This document shows, piece after piece, positions 4,990 to 61,072 of a stretch of DNA of 64,000 nucleotides. Source of the DNA: a plasmid; the sequence record NZ_CP035506.1. One strand, 5' to 3'. The notes below the pieces were generated by a model. It was given only the letters and a program-made list of their open reading frames with translations, had not been told where the DNA came from and searched no databases. The position numbers and the translations under genes are program-made. Position 1 is the stretch's first letter. Every line of letters begins with the position of its first letter.

Positions 4990-5514
4990 ATGACCGATAT
5001 TACCCCCAGTATCCTCGATGTGCCCTCCCAACCTGCCAAGGTGCGGCGGCGCGGCCTGAACAAGCTTTCCGGCCTGCGCAATGTTCTCGTGGGCCTGCGT
5101 CGCGCCTGGCTGGCGCGGATGTGGGGCATGGACCTTCACCCGACCGTGCAGATGTCGCTCTCCGCAAAGCTCGACCGGACTTTCCCGATCGGCGTCCATG
5201 TCGGGGAATATTCCTATCTCGCCTTCGAAAGCCGTATCCTGACCCATGACCGGACACGGGGGCTTTACCTGCATACCCGCATCGGGCGGAACTGCTTCAT
5301 CGGCGGGCGGAGCATGATCATGCCGGGGGTGGAGATCGGCGACAACTGCGTGGTGGGCGCCGGATCGGTGGTGACGAAATCGATCCCCGCCAATTCCGTC
5401 GTGGCCGGCAACCCGGCCCGCATTCTCCATTCCAACATCGACGTCGGTCCCTATGGCCGCTTCAGCACGGCGGATGCGATGGAAGATGCGCTTGCCCGGA
5501 GCGGCCAGGCCTGA
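4990..5514 (+). CDS. Hexapeptide-repeat (LbH) acetyltransferase, WcaF/NodL-like.
   Basis: The C-terminus carries hexapeptide repeats [30 protein letters not shown]. Start taken at the ATG at 4990, which has GGAG 11 nt upstream. Confidence 0.7.
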
Positions 5515-8551: not shown

Positions 8552-10342
8552 ATGAGCGACGGGACTACATCTCCTCAGGCCCCTTCGGGAAGCAACGCCT
8601 ATCGCGCAGCGCTCCGCAGATTGCGGGGCACCTTTCTGATGACGGGCTTCTTCAGCGCGGTGATCAACATCCTGATGCTGACGGGGCCGCTCTACATGCT
8701 TCAGGTCTATGACCGGGTGCTGGGTTCGGGATCGATCGCGACCCTGCAGGGGCTCTTCCTGATCGTGGTGATCCTCTACGCCTTCATGGGGCTTTACGAA
8801 TTCCTCCGTTCGCGGCTGCTCGGCCGGGCGGCGATCCGGCTCGATCAGGAGGTGGGACCGACCGCCTTCCGCGCCTGGCTCCGTTCGGGCGGGCAGCAGG
8901 CCACACGGAAACCGGGCGCATCGCCCCTGCCGCTGGCCGATCTGGGTACGGTTCGCGGGTTTCTCTCCTCACCCGCGATGGGGTCGATCTTCGATGTGCC
9001 GTGGATCCCGCTCTATCTCGGCCTGCTGTTTCTCATCCATCCCTGGCTCGGCTGGCTGACGCTGGCGGGGGCGGCCATCGTGGCGCTGGTGGCGGTGCTG
9101 GGCCGGCGCCTGACCCGCGCCCCGCAGGAGGCTTCTGCCGTGATAGAGGGGGAGGCGCGCGCTTTCTCCGAACAGGGCAGGCGCAATGCCGAGCTGATCG
9201 AGGCGATGGGCATGGAGCGCGGCGTGACGGAGCGCTGGCAGCAGGACCATGCCCGTGCGCTGGCGACGGGCCAGGGGGCGAGCAATGTGTCGGAGGTGAC
9301 GGGCGCCTTCTCCAAATCCTTCCGCATGCTGCTGCAGTCGGCCATGCTGACGGTGGGGGCGCTGCTTGTCCTGCGCCATGAGATGACGGCGGGGATGATC
9401 ATCGCCACCTCCATCCTCTCGGGGCGGGCGCTGGCGCCGGTGGACCAGATCATCGCCCAGTGGCGGATCATCGGGGCGGCGAGCCTTGCCCACAAGCGGC
9501 TCATCGCCTTCTTCGAAAAAGCTCCGCAGGAGCCGCGTCCCATCGGCCTTCCGCAGCCCACCGGCAAGGTGGTGGCGAACCGGCTGACATGCCTCGGCCC
9601 CGTGCCTGGAGCGGGGGGGGAGCGGCCGCGGATGCTGAACCAGGTCAGCTTCGCGCTGGAGCCGGGCGACGGGCTGGGCGTCATCGGCAATTCCGCGGCC
9701 GGCAAATCCACCCTCGCACGGCTGATCGTCGGTGCCTGGAAACCCGATGGCGGCGATATCCGCTTTGACGGTGCGACCCGCGACCAATGGGATCCGGAGG
9801 TTCTGGGACGCGCGGTCGGCTACCTGCCGCAGACGGTGGAACTGCTTCCCGGAACCATCCGCGACAACATCACCCGCTTTGACCCGGCGGCCCGGGACAA
9901 CGACATGATCGCGGCCGCCAGGCTGGCCGGTGTGCATGACATGATCCTCGCGCTGCCCGAAGGATATGGCACGAAGGTGGGCATCCCCGGCCAGCCGCTT
10001 TCCGGCGGCCAGGTACAGCGGCTCGGCCTCGCACGGGCGGTGTTCGGCGGGCCGCGGCTCATCGTTCTGGACGAGCCGAATTCCAACCTCGACGCGGCGG
10101 GAGAGGCGGCGCTTGCCCAGGCGATCCATGCCCTCCGCGCCGGCGGCGCCACGGTGATCCTGATGACCCATCGTACCAGCGCGCTGGCCGAGGTGAACAA
10201 GATCATGCTGCTGTCCGCCGGCAATGTCGTGAAGTTCGGTGACCGGGACGAGGTGCTGCGTGGCCTGTTGCTGCGCCCGGTTCCCGACACCGGGACTGGC
10301 GGTAACCAGATGCCCGGCATCACCGCGGGAGGCCAGCAATGA
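8552..10342 (+). CDS. prtD: Type I secretion system ABC transporter, PrtD/AprD type (an N-terminal TMD plus an NBD, with no C39 peptidase domain).
   Basis: The N-terminus shows 6 TM helices. Walker A is GNSAAGKST, the ABC signature is LSGGQVQRLGLARA, and Walker B is LIVLDEPNSNLD. The stop overlaps the start of the next gene (ATGA). Confidence 0.85.
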   Translation: MSDGTTSPQAPSGSNAYRAALRRLRGTFLMTGFFSAVINILMLTGPLYMLQVYDRVLGSGSIATLQGLFLIVVILYAFMGLYEFLRSRLLGRAAIRLDQEVGPTAFRAWLRSGGQQATRKPGASPLPLADLGTVRGFLSSPAMGSIFDVPWIPLYLGLLFLIHPWLGWLTLAGAAIVALVAVLGRRLTRAPQEASAVIEGEARAFSEQGRRNAELIEAMGMERGVTERWQQDHARALATGQGASNVSEVTGAFSKSFRMLLQSAMLTVGALLVLRHEMTAGMIIATSILSGRALAPVDQIIAQWRIIGAASLAHKRLIAFFEKAPQEPRPIGLPQPTGKVVANRLTCLGPVPGAGGERPRMLNQVSFALEPGDGLGVIGNSAAGKSTLARLIVGAWKPDGGDIRFDGATRDQWDPEVLGRAVGYLPQTVELLPGTIRDNITRFDPAARDNDMIAAARLAGVHDMILALPEGYGTKVGIPGQPLSGGQVQRLGLARAVFGGPRLIVLDEPNSNLDAAGEAALAQAIHALRAGGATVILMTHRTSALAEVNKIMLLSAGNVVKFGDRDEVLRGLLLRPVPDTGTGGNQMPGITAGGQQ

Positions 10343-23847: not shown

Positions 23848-25452
23848 ATGACGGCCGCGAACGAGAATTCCCGCTCCTCCCTGGCGGCTGCGCTTCCCTC
23901 GGTGAACGCCCCCGGTTTCATGTGGTTCATTCTGCTTCTGGCCGGGTCGATCCCGATCTTCTGGATCGGCTTCGTCTCGTTGGCGAAGGCCTGGTCCACG
24001 CCGGAATACAGCCATGGGCCGCTCATTCCGCTGATCTCGCTCTACCTCTTCCTGCGGGAGCTGCGGCAGATGCCTCCGCCCGCGGCCGAGGTGCGGGACC
24101 GCTGGCCGGGGCTCCTCGTCATTCTGCTGGGCCTCGTGGTTGCGCTGTTCGGCAACCTCACCCGCATTCCCGACATCGTCACCTATGCGATGATCATCTG
24201 GGTGGGCGGTGTGGTCCTCACCGTCTTCGGCTGGGAGCGGGGCAAGCATCATCAGCTTCCTGTCCTGCACCTGATCTTCATGCTGCCGCTGCCGCAGTTC
24301 CTCTACTGGCACCTGACGATCTTCCTGCAGGGGATCTCGTCGGAGATCGGCGTGTGGTTCGTGCGCCTTGCCGGTGTGCCGGTCTATCTCGAAGGCAATG
24401 TGATCGACCTCGGGGTCTACAAGCTGCAGGTGGCGGAAGCCTGTTCGGGCCTGCGCTACCTGTTCCCGATCCTGAGCTTCACCTATCTCTTCGCCATCCT
24501 CTATCGCGGCCCCTTCTGGCACAAGGCTGTGCTGATGCTGTCGGCCGTGCCGCTCACCGTGCTGATGAACTCCTTCCGCATCGGGGTGATCGGGGTGCTG
24601 GTGAACTCCTATGGTATCGAGCATGCCGAAGGGTTCCTGCACTTCTTCGAAGGCTGGGTGATCTTCATCGCCTGTATCGGCATCCTGTTCCTGATGGCGA
24701 TGGGCCTGCAACGGCTGACGCGGAACCCGCTGCCGCTGGCGGAGGCGATCGACCTCGATACCCGCGGCATGGCGCCGCTCATGGGGCGCATCCTGTCGAT
24801 CCGCCCCTCGAAGGCGCTGGCGGCGGGGGCACTGCTGACGCTTGCCCTGTCGGCGGGCTGGGCGCTGCATGGCGGGCCGCAGGCCCAGCAGATGGACCGG
24901 GAGCCTTTCGCGCTCTTCCCCCGGCAGTTCGGGGAATGGTCGGGCGCGGCCTCCGGTCTCGACCCGGAGATCGAGCGGGTGCTGGCCGCGACCGATTACA
25001 TGAACGCCGCCTATACCGCACCGGGCGAGAAGGACTATGTGCATTTCTTCTCGGCCTATTACGAGAAGCAGACGGAAGGCGCCGGCATCCACTCGCCGGA
25101 AGTCTGTCTCCCGGTCGGGGGCTGGGAGATCTTCACCTTCCAGCCGCACGAGGTGAGCTTCCCGGGAACGCCCTACGGTACCTTCACCGTGAACCGGGCG
25201 GTAATCCAGAAAGGGTTGTCCAAACAGCTCGTCTATTACTGGTTCGAGCAGCGCGGCAAGCGGATGACCAACGATTATCTCGCCAAGGCCAGCGTCGTCT
25301 GGGACAGCCTGACCCGCGGCCGTACGGACGGGGCGCTGGTGCGCTATGTCACCCCGATCGGCACGAACGAGAGCGAGGCCGACGCCGATGCCCGCATTCA
25401 GCGGCTGATGGCGAAAAGCCTGAACGTCCTGCCCCGCTACATTCCGTTCTGA
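23848..25452 (+). CDS. Exosortase fused to a C-terminal EpsI-family domain. It is predicted to be VPLPA-CTERM-specific (XrtD-like).
   Basis: The N-terminal 300 aa form a polytopic membrane domain with the conserved exosortase residues: Cys in [12 protein letters not shown], Arg in NSFRIGV, and an HFFEGW region. The C-terminal 230 aa form a soluble EpsI-like domain. RBS is GAGGA. A single VPLPA-CTERM gene lies in the same locus. Confidence 0.8.
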
Positions 25453-25474
25453 CTTGCTGAAGGCAAACTGAACA

Positions 25475-25496
25475 ACCCGGCTCCGGCCGGGTTTTC
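25475..25496 (+). terminator. Rho-independent terminator after the exosortase gene.
   Basis: Stem CCCGGC, loop TCCG, stem GCCGGG, followed by TTTT. Confidence 0.5.
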
Positions 25497-25784
25497 TGCG
25501 TTGCAGCATGTCGGGCGCAGCGAATCCCCCTTGTTCGGACACAACTTTCCAAAACGAAAGTATTCAACAGTTCACCTGCAAGCAGGTGGATGAAAGAGAA
25601 TTTTCAATCCTAAGACGAAGATGATTGCCTCTCCCATTTCGCGCCTCACGATAAAAGTTATTAAAAATAACACCTTTACGGCGAGCGCATCGGGCTATTC
25701 CAGCGAACAAGTTCAAGAAATTCCGATCTTTTGTGCCATATCGGGGACAAAGGCGCTCTCTTAGGGTCAGGACTCTTTCTCGGG

Positions 25785-26000
25785 TCATAGCCAGAACATG
25801 ACGGTTGCTGCGAGAGCGATGGCGGAAAGGAAGACCTTGGGGCACCTGTCGTAGCGGGTTGCGACGCGGCGCCAGTCCTTCAATCGCCCGAACATGATCT
25901 CAATCCTGTTGCGGCGTCTGTAGCGGCGCTTGTCATACTTGATGGGTATGCCGCGCGATTTCCGGCCGGGGATGCAGGGTTTTATCCCCTTGTCCTTCAA
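25785..26000 (-). pseudogene. C-terminal fragment of the IS5-family transposase orfB, displaced by the Tn3 insertion.
   Basis: The 71-aa sequence is identical to the C-terminus of the intact transposase at 55106-55738. Confidence 0.8.
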
Positions 26001-26081
26001 CGCTTCTCTGAACCAGTCGGCATCATAGCCGCGGTCCGCCAGCAGCCAGGGGGCTGATGCCGGAGGGGGCAGGATCCTACG

Positions 26082-28967
26082 TTAAGCCCTTTTCGGCCAC
26101 TTGTATTCGCCAGTGAGCAGGACATGGGCCCAACCGAGGGGCGAGATGTGCGCCAGAAGGTTCGGCGAACAGTCCAGGCCTTCGCGGCGGCGGCTGGCGA
26201 CGGCCTGGCCGAGATGCTTGGTGTTCCAGTAGATGACGATCGCGGCAAGAAGGTTCAGCCCGGCCATGCGGAAGTGCTGGGCTTCGGAGGTGCGGTCCCT
26301 GATCTCGCCCTGGCGGCCGATGCGGAGAGCGTTCTTCAGCGCGTGGTGGGCTTCGCCCTTGTTCAGGCCGATCTGGGCGCGGCGCTGCATGCCGGCATCA
26401 AGCAGCCAGTCGATGATGAAGAGCGTCCGTTCGACCCGTCCGATTTCCCGCAAGGCGACCGCCAGTTCATGTTGCCTCGGGTAGGACGCGAACTTCCGCA
26501 GGAGTTGGCTCGGCGGGATGGCTCCTGACGCCATGGTCGCCACGCTGCGCAGGATATCGGGCCAGTTCGCGGCGATGAGGGACTGCCTGATCTTGCCGCC
26601 GATCAGCCCTTTCAGCTCTTTCGGGCAGGCGGCCGGATCGAAGAGGTAGAGGCGCTTGGATGGCAGGTCGCGGATGCGGGGGATGAACTGGAAGCCCAGC
26701 AGGGCGGTGACGGCGAAGACGTGGTCGGTGAAGCCGCCAGTATCGGCATATTGCTCCCGGATCTTCTGCCCGGCGCTGGTCATCAGCAGGCCATCGAGGA
26801 TGTAGGGCGCTTCGTTCACGGTAGCCGGGATGGTCTGTGTGGCGAAGGGACCGAACTGGTCGGAGACATGGGTGTAGGCTTTCAGCCCGGGCTCATGGCC
26901 GTACTTGGCGTTGATCAGATTCATCGCCTCGCCCTGGCGTGTCGTCGGGAAGAACTGCCCGTCGCTCGATGCGGTCTGTCCGGCGCCCCAGAACTGCGCC
27001 ATCGGCAGTGCCGACTGCCCGTCGATCACCATGGCCAGGGCGCGGGCCATCGCCTCGCTTTCGACATGCCAGCGCGACAGGCGGGAAAGCTGGAAGAAGT
27101 CGTGCGTGTTCGTGGCCCCGGCCATCTTGCTGAGGCCGAGATTCAGCCCCTCGGCAAGCAACACGTTCAGCAGGCCGATCCGGTCCCTGCACGGCGCGCC
27201 GGTGCGCAGATGCGTAAAGGCCTCGGTGAAGCCAACCTCCGCATCCACTTCGAGCAGGAGATCGGTGACCCTGACTTCCGGCAGGCGGCCATAGAGGTCG
27301 AGCACCAAGGCGTCGGCTTCCTCGGGAACCGCCGCAGCCAGCCGGTCGATTTTCAAGGTGCCGTCCTCGATGGAGCCTCCCGGCATGGTCCCGGCCCTAG
27401 CCGCACGCGCCAGGCGATGCAGGGCGTCAGCCATTCGGGCTTTGCGGTCGGCCAGCCAGGTTTCCGGCTCGAACGGCATGGCCAGCCTCGGCGTGGCGCG
27501 GGCGACGTCGACCGGGACCAGCGCTTCCTTCAGGTCGCCATACCTGCGCGAATGCGCCAGCCAGATATCACCGGAACGGAAGGCTTCGCGCAGATGGAAC
27601 AGGACCGCGACCTCCCATATCCGGTGCTCATCTTCGCCATCCAGGTGGCGGTGCCACTTCGAGGCGCGGCGCAGAAAGGTCAGCGGCCGGACGTCTGGTG
27701 TCGCCGTGCCCGCGATGACCGCGCTTGCCGCCAGCAGCGGCTCCGCCACGGGCGCGGCACAGATGTCGAGTACCCGCAGCATGCGCGGCGCATAACGCCG
27801 GAAGCGATGATATCCGTGACCGACATGCGCCAGCGGATCAGCGGCAAACGTGTCGGTCAGTTGAGCGGCCGTGGCGACAAGCCCCTTGAGGGATATCCAG
27901 CCGCCGGCATTGCCGACGGCCTCTTCGAGAGAGGCCCGATCCTCATGCGCTTCCAGGAGCGCCGCTCCCAATGTCCTGAAGGATTGCAGGGTGTCCTTCA
28001 GCGCCGATCTGGCATCGTCCATCCGGGCGTCACATCGTGACTTCGCCTCGCGCCAGGTCTTGCCCACGATGCGGTCATGGGTCTCGACGACAGCGTCAGC
28101 AATGGCGCAGCGCCATTCCAGCGCGCAGACCGCAAGGATGGCGAGGCGGCGGTCACCCGAGATATCCCTCAGATCGCCTGCGAAGTATCGCTCTCCCTGC
28201 CGACGAAGGCGGGCAACGCGGTGTGGCGGCACATCCGCCAGAATGCCCCGGTCCAGCGCCAGCGCGCGCAGGTATTCCAGCCGGTCCAGAAGGCGGTTCA
28301 TGTCGGCCGAATTCTGCCCGGTTTCGAACTGGCGCAGCCAGACGAACCGCGTGACCGAGCCGCCCGCATCTTCGGTCAGGAGGGCATCGAGACGTGCTCG
28401 CATGGCATCGTCCAGCCGGCCACCGATCCGGGCGTCGATCCGGCGCTCGGCCGCGACAAGCGCCTCCGCGCAAAGCCGCTCGATGACCGTGATCCCCGGG
28501 AAGATGGTCTGGGTTGCCCGGCACTGCTCGACGAAGCGCCGTGCCAGATCCTCGTTCGACCGGGCGGCTTCGGCGGCATCCTCAAGCCATATTTTCAGGT
28601 CACGTGCCCCACGGCCCGCGAACATCTTGTAGCCATAGATCTCGCGCAAGGCGGCCAGGTGCTCATGCCGGGTCTCTTCCCGGGTCGCATACCCGGCCAG
28701 ATCGTCAGGCCTCATCCCGAGCTGCGCTGCCAGAAAGCGCGTGACCGCCAGCGGAATGACCTCGCCCGGCGCCAGCAGCCGCCCCGGATACCGAAGCGCG
28801 CAGAGCTGCAGGGCGAAACCGAAGCGGTTGTGCGGACGACGACGGGCGCGGACGATCTCCAGATCGTCGTCTGCCAGCGTGTAGTGGCGCAGCATCGACG
28901 CGTCATCGGTCGGCAGGTCGAACAATGCCGCCCTTTGCCGGGCGGTCAGGATGCTGCGTCTTGGCAT
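26082..28967 (-). CDS. tnpA: Tn3-family transposase TnpA (961 aa).
   Basis: Its size and N-terminus (MPRRSILTARQRAALFDLPTDDASMLRHYTLADDDLEIV...) are typical of Tn3 TnpA. The gene sits inside the GGGG-type IRs. Confidence 0.9.
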   Translation of the reverse strand: MPRRSILTARQRAALFDLPTDDASMLRHYTLADDDLEIVRARRRPHNRFGFALQLCALRYPGRLLAPGEVIPLAVTRFLAAQLGMRPDDLAGYATREETRHEHLAALREIYGYKMFAGRGARDLKIWLEDAAEAARSNEDLARRFVEQCRATQTIFPGITVIERLCAEALVAAERRIDARIGGRLDDAMRARLDALLTEDAGGSVTRFVWLRQFETGQNSADMNRLLDRLEYLRALALDRGILADVPPHRVARLRRQGERYFAGDLRDISGDRRLAILAVCALEWRCAIADAVVETHDRIVGKTWREAKSRCDARMDDARSALKDTLQSFRTLGAALLEAHEDRASLEEAVGNAGGWISLKGLVATAAQLTDTFAADPLAHVGHGYHRFRRYAPRMLRVLDICAAPVAEPLLAASAVIAGTATPDVRPLTFLRRASKWHRHLDGEDEHRIWEVAVLFHLREAFRSGDIWLAHSRRYGDLKEALVPVDVARATPRLAMPFEPETWLADRKARMADALHRLARAARAGTMPGGSIEDGTLKIDRLAAAVPEEADALVLDLYGRLPEVRVTDLLLEVDAEVGFTEAFTHLRTGAPCRDRIGLLNVLLAEGLNLGLSKMAGATNTHDFFQLSRLSRWHVESEAMARALAMVIDGQSALPMAQFWGAGQTASSDGQFFPTTRQGEAMNLINAKYGHEPGLKAYTHVSDQFGPFATQTIPATVNEAPYILDGLLMTSAGQKIREQYADTGGFTDHVFAVTALLGFQFIPRIRDLPSKRLYLFDPAACPKELKGLIGGKIRQSLIAANWPDILRSVATMASGAIPPSQLLRKFASYPRQHELAVALREIGRVERTLFIIDWLLDAGMQRRAQIGLNKGEAHHALKNALRIGRQGEIRDRTSEAQHFRMAGLNLLAAIVIYWNTKHLGQAVASRRREGLDCSPNLLAHISPLGWAHVLLTGEYKWPKRA

Positions 28968-29132
28968 GGCGATCTTTCAGGAAATCGTGATGGACGACCG
29001 TCCGTAAGGGGATCGGTGAGCGGACATGTGTCGAGAGGGTTGGGAGCGGTAAGGAAACCGCACTCCATCCTATCTCGTATAGATGGTACGATTTGATTCG
29101 CACATGCCGCCCCTTATCCGTACACTCGCTAC
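28968..29132. promoter_or_regulatory. Putative res site and divergent promoters between tnpA and tnpR.
   Basis: The position between the divergent tnpA and tnpR genes is the standard Tn3 organisation. Individual subsites were not resolved. Confidence 0.35.
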
Positions 29133-29720
29133 ATGACCGTGACCAAAATTGGCTATGCCCGCTGCTCCACCGACCGTCAGGACCTGACAGCGCAACGTGC
29201 TGCCCTTGCAGAGCTTGGGGTCACCGTAGACCGCATCTACACGGACCATGGCCTGACCGGCACGAACCGCGCCCGCCCCGGTCTCGACCAAGCGCTTGCT
29301 GCTGTGCGAGAAGGCGACGTGCTGGTCGTGCCGAAACTCGATCGCCTTGCGCGCTCGGTCCCGGACGCACGGGCCATCGCGGATCAGTTGGAAAAGAAGG
29401 GCGTCAAGCTTGCCCTCGGCGCATCGGTCTACGATCCGACCGACCCGATGGGAAAGATGTTCTTCAACATCCTCGCCACCTTCGCCGAGTTCGAGGCCGA
29501 CCTCATCCGCATGCGTACCCGCGAAGGTATGGCCATCGCCCGAGCCAGGGGCAAGCTTCGGGGAAAGCAGCCGAAACTCTCGGAAAAACAACAAAAAGAA
29601 CTGAGCCGGATGCACGCCTCCGGCGAATATTCCATCAGCGATCTCGCTGAGCTCTTTGCCGTCTCAAGACCGACCGTCTACAGGACGCTGCAGCGAAATC
29701 CGGCCAAAACTCAGCCTTAG
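29133..29720 (+). CDS. tnpR: Serine recombinase/resolvase TnpR.
   Basis: The N-terminal catalytic motif is GYARCSTDRQD (with the catalytic Ser). A C-terminal HTH is also present. Confidence 0.9.
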   Translation: MTVTKIGYARCSTDRQDLTAQRAALAELGVTVDRIYTDHGLTGTNRARPGLDQALAAVREGDVLVVPKLDRLARSVPDARAIADQLEKKGVKLALGASVYDPTDPMGKMFFNILATFAEFEADLIRMRTREGMAIARARGKLRGKQPKLSEKQQKELSRMHASGEYSISDLAELFAVSRPTVYRTLQRNPAKTQP

Positions 29721-29752
29721 CGTAGGATTCTGCCCCCTCCGGCATCAGACCC

Positions 29753-30264
29753 CAGCCAGTCCGCCTTTGGCAAGCTGCCCAGAAGTGCTGCGGCACCCGT
29801 GTAGTCACTGACCTGACCTGCGGTCACGAAGAAGCGGATTGGCCGGCCATCAGCATCGGTGACGGCGTGCAACTTGGTGTTCATGCCGCCCTTGGTTCGG
29901 CCGATCAATCGGCCCCTCTGATCGTTGGCTCCCCCTTTTTCGCTCGCAGGCTGGTCGCCGTGCGATGCGCCTTGAGATAGGTCGCGTCGATCATCACCGT
30001 CTCCGGAACTGCCGACTCTGCCGCCAGGCCGAGCATCATCCGGGCGAAGACACCCCTGTCGCTCCACCGCTTCCAACGGTTGTAGAGCGTCTTCGACGGG
30101 CCATACTCCTTGGGAGCGTCGCGCCATCGCAAACCATTGCGATTAATGAAGATAATGCCGCTGAGAACGCGCCGGTCATCAACACGCGGCTTGCCATGGC
30201 TCTTGGGAAAGAAGGGCTCCAGGCGCGACATCTGCGCCTCCGTCAGCCAAAAGAGGTTGCTCAT
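29753..30264 (-). pseudogene. IS5-family transposase: orfA is intact, and the N-terminal part of orfB is truncated at the Tn3 junction.
   Basis: orfA (29905-30264) is identical to the orfA of copy 2. orfB matches copy 2 up to ...LPKADWL and then reads into the Tn3 IR. Confidence 0.8.
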
Positions 30265-30474
30265 TCATCGGTCTCCTTGCGGAGCCTGAATCATGCTGAA
30301 AGCGCAAGATCAATGGGTCCTGACCCTAAGCGCAAGCAGCTGAGTTTTATTAATAAACTAGGAAATATTAAAAAAACCACTGTCACGCCGCATCGCAACA
30401 TGTTAATAATTGACATAAGCGTGATGAACTCGGCTCCGGCCCCTGAGCCGATTGGCAGAATTATGGAGAGAAAC

Positions 30475-31026
30475 ATGTTGAAGAAGGTTGTTACGGCTGC
30501 CCTCATCGCCGCGGCCTCCGCTGCCTCGGCAAATGCTGCTGTCATTTATGCAAGCAGCGTGGTTTCGGCTAAACAGAAGGGCTATGTTGCGCCGGTGCGC
30601 AGCAACCCGATCGCAGCAACGGGTGCCGAGGATGGGAGCTTCTACTCCCTCGGCTTCGGTGGCAGCATCGTGCTCGGCTTCTCGAGCCTGGTGAGCGGCG
30701 CTGGGAAGGTGTTCGAAGTCACCAACCTCCCGCGGGAAACCTATATCGAGAGCGCGATCTTCTCGGTCAGCCTCGACGGAAAATCCTGGACCACTCTGGG
30801 AGAATACTCCAACCAGGTCAGCTCGCTCTATTCGGCGACGCCGTTCCTCTTCCTCAAGGTGGAGGATACCAGCCCGGTGATCGCCGGCCATGGCCGTGAC
30901 GGCTATGACATCGACGCCATCGGCTTCGAAGAATATGTCGCCGCGGTTCCGCTTCCGGCGGCGGGCCTGCTGCTGATCGGTGGTCTGGCCGGCCTGGGTG
31001 CCATGAAGCGCCGCAAAGCGGCCTGA
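30475..31026 (+). CDS. VPLPA-CTERM sorting-domain protein, the predicted exosortase substrate. It is a small secreted protein with an unknown N-terminal domain.
   Basis: Signal peptide MLKKVVTAALIAAASAASANA. The C-terminus is ...EEYVAAVPLPAAGLLLIGGLAGLGAMKRRKAA: a VPLPA motif, a hydrophobic helix and a basic cluster. RBS GGAGAG is 5 nt upstream. An alternative ATG is at 30463. Confidence 0.75.
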   Translation: MLKKVVTAALIAAASAASANAAVIYASSVVSAKQKGYVAPVRSNPIAATGAEDGSFYSLGFGGSIVLGFSSLVSGAGKVFEVTNLPRETYIESAIFSVSLDGKSWTTLGEYSNQVSSLYSATPFLFLKVEDTSPVIAGHGRDGYDIDAIGFEEYVAAVPLPAAGLLLIGGLAGLGAMKRRKAA

Positions 31027-31057
31027 GCCTCAAGAAACGATTTTCGGAACGCCGGTG

Positions 31058-31090
31058 CGATTGCGCCGGCGTTTTGCTTTCCGGGTTGCT
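31058..31090 (+). terminator. Probable terminator after the VPLPA-CTERM gene.
   Basis: Stem GCCGG, 9-nt loop, stem CCGGC, then gttttgcttt. Confidence 0.4.
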
Positions 31091-31216
31091 TCCAAGGTTT
31101 CCCTTGCATCCTGGGCGTTGCTGGATCACCTCTCAGGCATCATGCGGCCCGACAAACCCCTTCCCGCCCGTCAGCGTCCCCGCTTCCCGCGGCGGGAGGG
31201 CATTCTGACAGACCGA

Positions 31217-31828
31217 ATGCGCGCCATGCCGGTGGTGCTCGTGCTGTTCGTGGCCTGCCTGATCCCGGAACTCATTCTTTCCGGAGCTGATTACGGGCTT
31301 TGGGGCGATCCCGGCTGGCGGCTCTGGGCCTGGCAGCATGGCGGCTTCTGGACGGGGCTTCTGGGCAACTGGCGGCCCAACTATGCCGCGCAACCCTGGC
31401 TCATGTTCCTGACCTACGGCTTCCTGCACGGGGGGGTGATCCATTTCGGGGTGAACATGCTCACCCTGTTCTCTCTTGCGCCACCGCTGGTGGAGCGGAT
31501 GGGACAGGGACGGTTCCTGCTGCTCTACATGGCATCCATGATCGGTGGCGGTCTGGGCTTTGCGCTGCTGTCCCAGTCTCCGCAGCCGATGGTGGGGGCG
31601 TCGGGGGCGCTGTTCGGGCTGGCGGGCGCGGTCATGGCGCTGAGCTGGCAATATCTGCGGGCACGGGGGGAGAGCCTCAGGCCGGTGATCCGGTCCCTTC
31701 TGTGGCTTGCCGGGCTGAACCTGGTCCTCTGGTGGGCGATGAGCGGGATGTTGGCCTGGGAAACCCATCTGGGTGGTTTCGTCGTCGGCTGGCTCATGGG
31801 CCTGTGGCTGGTGAGGGATGGGCGATAG
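31217..31828 (+). CDS. Rhomboid-family intramembrane serine protease.
   Basis: About 6 TM helices. The GxSG motif is MVGASGALFGLAG, and the conserved His is in a later TM (AWETHLGGFVVGW). The first ATG in frame with the track ORF 31055 is used as start. Confidence 0.7.
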   Translation: MRAMPVVLVLFVACLIPELILSGADYGLWGDPGWRLWAWQHGGFWTGLLGNWRPNYAAQPWLMFLTYGFLHGGVIHFGVNMLTLFSLAPPLVERMGQGRFLLLYMASMIGGGLGFALLSQSPQPMVGASGALFGLAGAVMALSWQYLRARGESLRPVIRSLLWLAGLNLVLWWAMSGMLAWETHLGGFVVGWLMGLWLVRDGR

Positions 31829-54836: not shown

Positions 54837-54904
54837 GATGGAGAACTCCCGAAATTGGGTAGACGTACTGAAAACCTCGTTAAGTTTGCACCCGCTTATC
54901 CCTT

Positions 54905-55761
54905 TAGGGTCAGGACCCATTGATCTTGCGCTTTCAGCATGATTCAGGCTCCGCAAGGAGACCGATGAATGAGCAACCTCTTTTGGCTGACGGAGGCGCA
55001 GATGTCGCGCCTGGAGCCCTTCTTTCCCAAGAGCCATGGCAAGCCGCGTGTTGATGACCGGCGCGTTCTCAGCGGCATTATCTTCATTAATCGCAATGGT
55101 TTGCGATGGCGCGACGCTCCCAAGGAGTATGGCCCGTCGAAGACGCTCTACAACCGTTGGAAGCGGTGGAGCGACAGGGGTGTCTTCGCCCGGATGATGC
55201 TCGGCCTGGCGGCAGAGTCGGCAGTTCCGGAGACGGTGATGATCGACGCGACCTATCTCAAGGCGCATCGCACGGCGACCAGCCTGCGAGCGAAAAAGGG
55301 GGAGCCAACGATCAGAGGGGCCGATTGATCGGCCGAACCAAGGGCGGCATGAACACCAAGTTGCACGCCGTCACCGATGCTGATGGCCGGCCAATCCGCT
55401 TCTTCGTGACCGCAGGTCAGGTCAGTGACTACACGGGTGCCGCAGCACTTCTGGGCAGCTTGCCAAAGGCGGACTGGCTGCTGGCGGACCGCGGCTATGA
55501 TGCCGACTGGTTCAGAGAAGCGTTGAAGGACAAGGGGATAAAACCCTGCATCCCCGGCCGGAAATCGCGCGGCATACCCATCAAGTATGACAAGCGCCGC
55601 TACAGACGCCGCAACAGGATTGAGATCATGTTCGGGCGATTGAAGGACTGGCGCCGCGTCGCAACCCGCTACGACAGGTGCCCCAAGGTCTTCCTTTCCG
55701 CCATCGCTCTCGCAGCAACCGTCATGTTCTGGCTATGACCCGAGAAAGAGTCCTGACCCTA
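54905..55761 (+). mobile_element. IS5-family (IS427-like) insertion sequence, intact copy 2, 857 bp.
   Basis: 12-bp perfect terminal IRs TAGGGTCAGGAC / GTCCTGACCCTA. orfA and orfB overlap by programmed frameshift. It lies 69 bp upstream of the aqpZ start codon. Confidence 0.85.
54969..55738 (+). CDS. IS5-family transposase (orfA 54969-55328 and orfB 55106-55738, presumably expressed as an OrfAB frameshift fusion).
   Basis: Two overlapping ORFs in different frames. orfB carries the DDE region (...[12 protein letters not shown]...). Confidence 0.85.
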
Positions 55762-60612: not shown

Positions 60613-61072
60613 TCCAGTCCTCTCGATCATCTTCTGTTCCTCAATCTCCGCACCCCCTGCCGGGTTCCCGCGTCTTTTGCGTCTGCGGCGATGGGGCGCG
60701 GCGCCTGATTGCTGTGATGTGGTTGCTGGGGTGGCCCGTCTGCGACCGGCCTGCAGTACTCAGGCCCGCAGTAATCGGCCCGCAGTACTCAGGCCCGGAG
60801 CAATCGGCGCTGGACACCCGGCCTGAGCATCCGGCCTAAACACCTGACCCCGAACACCTTGGACACTTGGCCCGGATTTGGTCGCCTTCGTGCCCATTTA
60901 GCGCGCACCGCCCGCCAAAGAGGCACAGGAAGAAGACAAATATCTCACCTTGTGTGACAAAGCGACACATGACACTCCCTTCGTTATGTGCCGAAGGCCC
61001 TTTGGCGGGCGCATCGGTTGCCTAGGGCAGGTGCGCCGATTATGGGGGCCTCATTGTAACAAGGGAGTGAGG

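Follow-up and report, generated by a model that had tools for sequence, protein, structure and literature searches.

It is common for mobile elements to be nested, for insertion sequences (IS) to lie in the AT-rich spacers of genomes with a high GC content and for IS copies to occur in inverted pairs. The closest described relatives of the elements considered here are, on the one side, the cryptic Tn3-family transposons of Paracoccaceae and roseobacters, namely Tn3434/Tn3434a (3,695 bp) and Tn6122 (PMC3281130, Dziewit et al. 2012), of which Tn3434a and Tn6122 are reported to produce 6-bp AT-rich target duplications in Paracoccus (PMC3281130), and, on the other side, the IS5-family elements with two open reading frames (ORFs) that are described by the NCBIfam model transpos_IS5_3. 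Here we analysed a 64,000-nt stretch of the plasmid sequence record NZ_CP035506.1 (hereafter the window), in which a Tn3-family transposon lies inside an IS5-family element and the resulting composite stands between xrtD, the gene of a VPLPA-CTERM-specific exosortase, and the gene of a VPLPA-CTERM protein, the presumed cargo of that sorting system. The best overall explanation, which we consider quite likely to be correct, is a recent, strain-level nesting of two ordinary mobile elements, with the VPLPA-CTERM gene most likely still on its own promoter.

Structure of the nested insertion

By a repeat search of the window, the two halves of the interrupted IS (29753-30329 and 25762-26049) were each found to be 100% complementary to a part of a second, intact copy (54904-55480 and 55474-55761, respectively). 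The interrupted copy was then rebuilt by a script, joining 25762-26048 to 29759-30329, i.e. removing the transposon and one AGCCA, and it aligned end to end with the reverse complement of 54904-55761 with identity at 858 of 858 positions. Therefore, the interrupted IS differs from the intact copy only by the 3,705-bp insert and the 5-bp AGCCA duplication. A preliminary description of the locus, made from the letters alone, had proposed a Tn3-family element within an IS5-family element, and the repeat search, the reconstruction and the family profiles all bear this out. The AGCCA duplication that it reported at both junctions is present, but its two copies, first given as 26045-26049 and 29755-29759, lie one base earlier, at 26044-26048 and 29754-29758; in the same way, the intact copy placed at 54905-55761 exists, but the IS proper covers 54907-55759 (853 bp) and the TA duplications lie outside it.

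The interrupted IS5-family element spans 25764-30326, its IS proper being 853 bp long and flanked by a 2-bp TA duplication; the transposon within it measures 3,705 bp (26049-29753) and the whole composite 4.56 kb. The parts of the composite and the intact IS copy are the following (window coordinates; loci gathered for comparison are cited by L numbers):

25762..25763, no strand: left copy of the TA target duplication of the IS (empty site in L005, where the flanks overlap by 2 bp at 9915-9916)
25764..26048, minus strand: right-hand part of the interrupted IS, with the right inverted repeat (IRR), the 3' part of orfB and the terminal AGCCA at 26044-26048 (100% identical to 55474-55761)
26049..26086, plus strand: terminal inverted repeat of the Tn3-family transposon, tnpA end, GGGGGCTGATGCC... 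(repeat pair; same end in four further insertion contexts)
26082..28967, minus strand: tnpA, intact, Tn3-family transposase of 961 amino acids (NF033527, 1062.7 bits over the full length, cut-off 500 bits; Pfam DUF4158, PF13700, and DDE_Tnp_Tn3, PF01526)
29000..29126, no strand: candidate res region in the 165-bp tnpA-tnpR spacer, with blocks at 29000-29026 (GTCCG-N16-CGGAC), 29073-29090 and 29110-29126 (alignment with relatives at 89% and 77% identity)
29133..29720, plus strand: tnpR, intact, serine resolvase of 195 amino acids, divergent from tnpA and oriented toward the VPLPA-CTERM gene (Pfam Resolvase, 143 bits, and HTH_7)
29716..29753, minus strand: terminal inverted repeat of the transposon, tnpR end (repeat pair; 35/38 match to the tnpA end)
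29754..30326, minus strand: left-hand part of the interrupted IS, with AGCCA at 29754-29758, the 5' part of orfB, orfA at 29905-30264 and the left inverted repeat (IRL) (100% identical to 54904-55480)
30327..30328, no strand: right copy of the TA target duplication of the IS (empty-site comparison)
54907..55759, plus strand: intact IS copy of 853 bp, with TA duplications at 54905-6 and 55760-1, orfA at 54969-55328 and the orfB frame running to 55738 (repeat search; empty site in the type strain, L094)

The genomes used for the empty-site comparison came from a scan of the species-representative genomes with XrtD, which returned three Haematobacter species. In the type strain of H. massiliensis, CCUG 47968 (L005), the site between xrtD and the VPLPA-CTERM gene is empty: the flanks abut with a 2-bp TA overlap and the spacer is 457 bp long. 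It is this overlap that sets the length of the IS at 853 bp (25764-30326) with a TA duplication. The site is also empty in H. missouriensis (L006), with a spacer of about 460-480 bp, and in three metagenome contigs (L102, L103, L106) that have the 457-bp spacer and encode an identical VPLPA-CTERM protein; Falsirhodobacter flavus has the order xrtD, a spacer of 481 bp, VPLPA gene and rhomboid. Hence, a native spacer as long as that of the window was not found in the orthologous loci, whose spacers of ~457-481 bp are far shorter, and the insertion is real.

The insertion allele was found in other assemblies as well. Contigs of several independent runs (L104, L105, L107, L108) start ~29-54 nt inside the IS end and continue into the VPLPA-CTERM gene, a further set (L117-119, L121, L122, L124, L125) enters the opposite IS end from the xrtD side, with one contig breaking off precisely at the branch point between transposon and IS, and L113 reproduces the junction between IS and transposon at 100% identity. 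This junction had no exact match in the loci first gathered or in the JGI metagenome contigs, and it was later found in ENA assemblies through exact junction ORFs. The two IS copies are identical to each other, as the transposon copies are among themselves, and the site of the intact IS copy is likewise empty in the type strain (L094); both the IS and the transposon insertions are recent events. We regard the structure of the elements, their boundaries, the duplications, the empty sites and this recency as established; nothing mechanistically unusual was found in the nested arrangement.

The IS has the traits of the two-ORF elements of the transpos_IS5_3 type: an orfA coding for a DUF4096 protein (119 amino acids), an orfB coding for a DDE protein, a -1 overlap of the two frames at an A5G run (55293-55298), short terminal inverted repeats (11/12, GGGTCAGGAC(C/T)C) and a TA duplication, which is shown by the empty sites of both copies and is also present in L134. 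The A5G run is likely the -1 slip site that would join orfA and orfB; fusing the frames there restores a full-length match to the IS5 model, the fused transposase of 256 amino acids scoring 279.9 bits with NF033580 (transpos_IS5_3; cut-off 110) over model positions 3-258 of 258. As already noted in the preliminary description, the transposon breaks orfB at KADWL|LADRGY, which is after residue 171 of the 256. With the fused transposase split right before LADRGY/DRGY, the interrupted copy is unable to make transposase, and both IS ends of the composite are intact. We assign the element, presumably, to the IS427 group. Its nearest plasmid-borne relatives, in Thioclava and Paracoccus yeei, are only 84-87% identical, so that it qualifies as a distinct isoform or for a new IS name. 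The intact copy lies 70 nt upstream of the start codon of aqpZ (54836, minus strand), at the site that is empty in L094. An IS110-family element of 1,386 bp interrupts the aqpZ-side copy in the metagenome contig L095; its insertion point, window 55424/55425, is ~50 bp away from the site of the transposon in the other copy.

The transposon carries tnpA and tnpR only, with no cargo gene of its own. Its two 38-nt inverted repeats of the GGGG type are 92% complementary (35/38) and align without a shift, position 5 being a G/T mismatch, and a Pseudosulfitobacter relative has GGGGTCTG at both ends. The three conserved blocks upstream of tnpR are candidate res subsites, judging from their alignment with relatives. 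With ~3.7 kb, only tnpA and tnpR, 38-bp GGGG-type repeats, a short duplication and the same host group, it resembles Tn3434/Tn3434a and Tn6122 in design, and a Tn6122-like element of the Ruegeria PR1b plasmid matches it at 72% over 78% of its length. Unlike Tn3434a and Tn6122, its targets are not AT-rich and its duplication is of 5 bp (or 6 with a trailing G). Target duplications were read for the window (AGCCA), for two copies on pOT1 plasmids (ACGCT and GGGGT; L001 and L003) and for L089 (TTCAT). The base directly 3' of the duplication is G at all four independent sites (AGCCA-G, ACGCT-G, GGGGT-G, TTCAT-G), and thus a 5-bp and a 6-bp model predict the same sequences: the duplication may be 6 bp long (AGCCAG), or the G may be a target preference. 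In the pOT1-8 copy (L002), a 19-bp direct repeat, TTTTCAACGTGTGCTGAAA, at 1482-1500 and 5206-5224 replaces the 5-bp duplication.

Full-length, 100% identical copies of the 3,705-bp transposon are present on the H. massiliensis OT1 plasmids pOT1-7, pOT1-8 and pOT1-9; copies at 99.9% identity occur in Salipiger profundus plasmids, relatives at ~89% identity in 144 Pseudosulfitobacter plasmids, and an identical TnpA protein is listed in 44 collection blocks. The transposon is an active multicopy element in this genome. There is one copy per OT1 plasmid record, which is compatible with target immunity. In plasmid p.D of Cereibacter sphaeroides (L127, 3066-4014) a relative at 77% identity carries two additional genes, one for a MarR regulator and one hypothetical, in the interval from tnpA to res/tnpR; the backbone is thus able to take up cargo.

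xrtD, the VPLPA-CTERM gene and the spacer between them

The genes around the insertion form a typical polysaccharide/exosortase cluster. Those that adjoin the composite, and the two parts of the native spacer, are:

23848..25452, plus strand: xrtD, VPLPA-CTERM-specific exosortase with a fused EpsI domain (TIGR04152, 710 bits, cut-off 400; Pfam Exosortase_EpsH and DUF3485)
25453..25763, plus strand: distal, xrtD-side portion (311 bp) of the native spacer, which the insertion has moved 4.56 kb away from the VPLPA-CTERM gene, with conserved blocks at ~25650-25689 and ~25725-25760 (alignment, identity counts)
25474..25493, no strand: likely terminator of xrtD, a GC-rich hairpin with a T-run 3' of it (terminator scan; conserved in H. 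missouriensis)
30329..30474, plus strand: proximal part of the spacer (146 bp), which stayed with the VPLPA-CTERM gene and includes a 76-nt core (alignment of H. massiliensis with H. missouriensis)
30475..31026, plus strand: gene of a VPLPA-CTERM protein of 183 amino acids, intact, putative XrtD substrate (TIGR03370, 39.7 bits, cut-off 25.35)

The composite sits in an AT-rich spacer between the xrtD terminator hairpin and the VPLPA-CTERM gene, as had been described: the two parts of the spacer have 48% and 43% GC, against 64.7% for the window. The XrtD protein is 100% identical in the Haematobacter loci L004 and L005. The VPLPA-CTERM protein ends in VPLPAAGLLLIGGLAGLGAMKRRKAA, with the VPLPA motif, a transmembrane helix and a basic tail, and it is a putative substrate of XrtD on the basis of the NCBIfam naming and of an adjacency conserved in Haematobacter and Falsirhodobacter. 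A search of the literature on XrtD and VPLPA-CTERM found nothing relevant. Directly 3' of the VPLPA-CTERM gene, in both Haematobacter and Falsirhodobacter, there is a rhomboid-family gene (window 31055-31828; L007 10811-11452), whose match to the rhombosortase model is weak (31.6 bits, cut-off 84); the conserved trio of xrtD, VPLPA-CTERM gene and rhomboid gene might be functionally linked. Elsewhere in the window, at 60747-60804, the repeat search found a tandem pair of 29-nt units, CGGCCTGCAGTACTCAGGCCCGCAGTAAT, 90% identical.

The preliminary description had held that the insertion took most of the native promoter region away from the VPLPA-CTERM gene. This is right by length, with 311 of the 457 bp displaced, but the 146 bp that were retained are the best conserved: between H. 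massiliensis and H. missouriensis they are 92% identical, and their AT-rich core of 76 nt (30339-30414) is identical at 75 of 76 positions (98.7%; flanking DNA ~90%), whereas the displaced 311 bp reach 71% overall and 87.5% in one block. Among the features of the core are TTGACA at 30410-30415 and the near-palindrome GTTAATAATTGAC at 30401-30413; the core is probably a regulatory site. The VPLPA-CTERM protein and its coding sequence are identical in the insertion and empty alleles. With its coding sequence and the best-conserved 146 bp still in place, the gene is most likely still expressed from its own promoter; the core promoter was probably retained and only distal upstream sequence lost. 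The effect of the insertion on expression would probably be modest and would stem from lost upstream sites. An Rfam search of the native spacer returned no family, with only a sub-threshold match on the terminator hairpin. An ORF of 47 codons, located in the distal spacer and terminated precisely by the TAA of the IS target, was considered and rejected: in the alignment, inspected by eye, its H. missouriensis counterpart lacks a start codon and has an early stop.

Order of events and alternative explanations

For the order of events at the xrtD site and for the mobilisation in trans we infer the following. An 853-bp IS5-family element (orfA/orfB, -1 frameshift, TA duplication) would have inserted first, into the AT-rich spacer at a point 148 nt 5' of the VPLPA-CTERM gene; the cargo-less 3.7-kb transposon (tnpA, res, tnpR) would then have entered orfB after residue 171/256, just before the DRGY motif. 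The IS copy that was hit would have lost its transposase and kept both its ends, and the broken IS could still move, or recombine, by means of the intact inverted copy 24.6 kb away.

Several observations weigh against this reading, some on the order of events and some on the promoter. Exact-protein look-ups of the junction ORFs showed that, in L114, L115 and L116, the right arm of the IS next to the transposon continues into the flank of the other IS copy (from window 55762 on); in L112, whose tnpR end is moreover diverged, the left arm of the IS with its transposon junction leads to a third flank. Among the short-read contigs there are odd joins: in L135 the IS connects the aqpZ-side flank with an unrelated one, and L114 looks chimeric at the other end of the transposon. 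The phasing of short reads is unreliable here, and chimeric contigs are a live explanation for the odd linkages. As for the promoter, a sigma-70 scan of the insertion and empty alleles predicted none in either the retained or the displaced part of the spacer, and a conserved distal block, ACAC..TTA.GGCGAGCG, partly common to Falsirhodobacter, was displaced by the insertion.

The Tn-marked IS arm on other flanks means that the order in situ is not proven. Of the two successive transposition events that had been proposed for this site, the two events are certain, but that both occurred at the xrtD site is not, as the same junction of IS and transposon is found on other flanks elsewhere. Accordingly, the nested unit could have arisen in another IS copy and reached the xrtD spacer either by transposition of the 4.56-kb composite or by homologous exchange between the IS copies at 25.8 and 54.9 kb, an alternative that we consider unlikely, though of some weight. 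The identical junction followed by the flank of the other copy was seen in three independent assemblies, and the third flank of L112 adds to it; the two IS ends of the composite are intact and the intact copy is present as a source of transposase. In addition, the joins in L114-116, L112 and L137, the last having an intact IS joined to the xrtD flank, mean that all four linkages of the right arm of the IS exist, which fits homologous exchange (inversion or conversion) between the inverted IS copies after a single transposon insertion. However, short-read k-mers do not reach across the IS arms (287 and 576 bp), so that chimeric joins are expected, and L114, L135 and L112 do show odd joins; moreover, the intact IS at the xrtD flank in L137 is the expected precursor and fits the in situ order with the IS first, and the nested junction is missing among the JGI metagenome contigs. 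The xrtD region and flank X of L112 had no match among the PLSDB plasmids; with this and the identical transposon copies on the OT1 plasmids, the window most likely belongs to an OT1-like chromosome.

A second alternative is that the insertion severs the VPLPA-CTERM gene from promoter or activator sites, with silencing as the result, or with outward transcription from the mobile elements, e.g. tnpR read-through, in place of the native promoter. We hold this to be rather improbable, and the regulatory rewiring or silencing suggested at first for this gene finds little to sustain it. In its favour, the displaced part of the spacer includes conserved blocks now 4.56 kb away, and tnpR is oriented toward the VPLPA-CTERM gene with no terminator-like site predicted on the plus strand at 29720-30475, so that read-through would be possible on this prediction; also, some Paracoccus transposable elements drive downstream genes (PMC3281130). 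Against it, the Paracoccus elements with outward promoters are the IS903 group of IS5, IS3, IS21, IS256 and Tn5393, none of the type found here (PMC3281130). At the IS end, a scan and inspection by hand found no consensus for an outward or hybrid promoter and no -10 element that would be acceptable at the required distance. The gene retains the best-conserved 146 bp, its coding sequence is unchanged, and the IS allele persists in many independent assemblies.

Lastly, although both elements are multicopy repeats, a mis-join of repeats during assembly is extremely improbable, given that both target duplications are exact, that independent contigs reproduce the IS-flank junctions and the nested junction and that, if the window is from OT1, as we infer, the assembly was made from PacBio reads size-selected above 20 kb (PMC6498234).

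Possible recurrent change at the locus and its meaning

A nesting of two ordinary elements, as preferred here, leaves two identical, inverted IS copies that bracket 24.6 kb (30330-54903). Inversion between inverted IS copies is a general phenomenon; here, the two identical inverted copies exist and an inversion is only suggested by short-read contigs. We consider it quite doubtful that the pair (25.8 / 54.9 kb) provides the arms by which the ~25-29 kb polysaccharide block that starts with the VPLPA-CTERM gene is inverted or exchanged in nature, the spacer being a site of recurrent reshaping of the cargo. If this were true, strains would differ in the flank next to the Tn-marked arm and xrtD would sometimes be parted from its cargo gene.

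In Haematobacter genomosp. 1 H2240 (L004, 9940-13167), a different insert of 3,228 bp is present in the same spacer, at about window 25675-25763 and 30329-30351, between direct repeats formed by a 112-bp duplication of the spacer. ISPme1 (IS1380 family; many plasmid copies match it at 99.8-100% identity) makes up the right half of this insert; in the left half there are an isochorismatase-family fragment and a gene for a choice-of-anchor A protein whose tail is of the VPLPA-CTERM type. Composed of ISPme1 and of 1.56 kb of foreign DNA next to it, the insert has the look of an ISPme1 transposable module, of the kind mentioned for Paracoccus (PMC3281130), that brought in a second XrtD substrate; it belongs to a strain other than that of the window, and its flanking duplication is 112 bp and not short. 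If the exchange between IS copies were true, then, together with this independent module, the spacer between xrtD and its cargo would be a recurrent site at which mobile elements reshape the cargo set of the sorting system.

As for the elements themselves, the transposon is a cargo-less, cryptic transposon of the Tn3434/Tn6122 type, spreading among Haematobacter replicons and related marine genera, for which exact ends are now given, and exact boundaries are likewise given for an unnamed IS5-family element. The insertion is polymorphic and lies upstream of the only VPLPA-CTERM gene that adjoins xrtD, and it carries little weight beyond annotation. If it did alter expression, the two natural alleles, OT1-like and CCUG 47968, would offer a convenient way to approach the hitherto unstudied XrtD/VPLPA-CTERM system.

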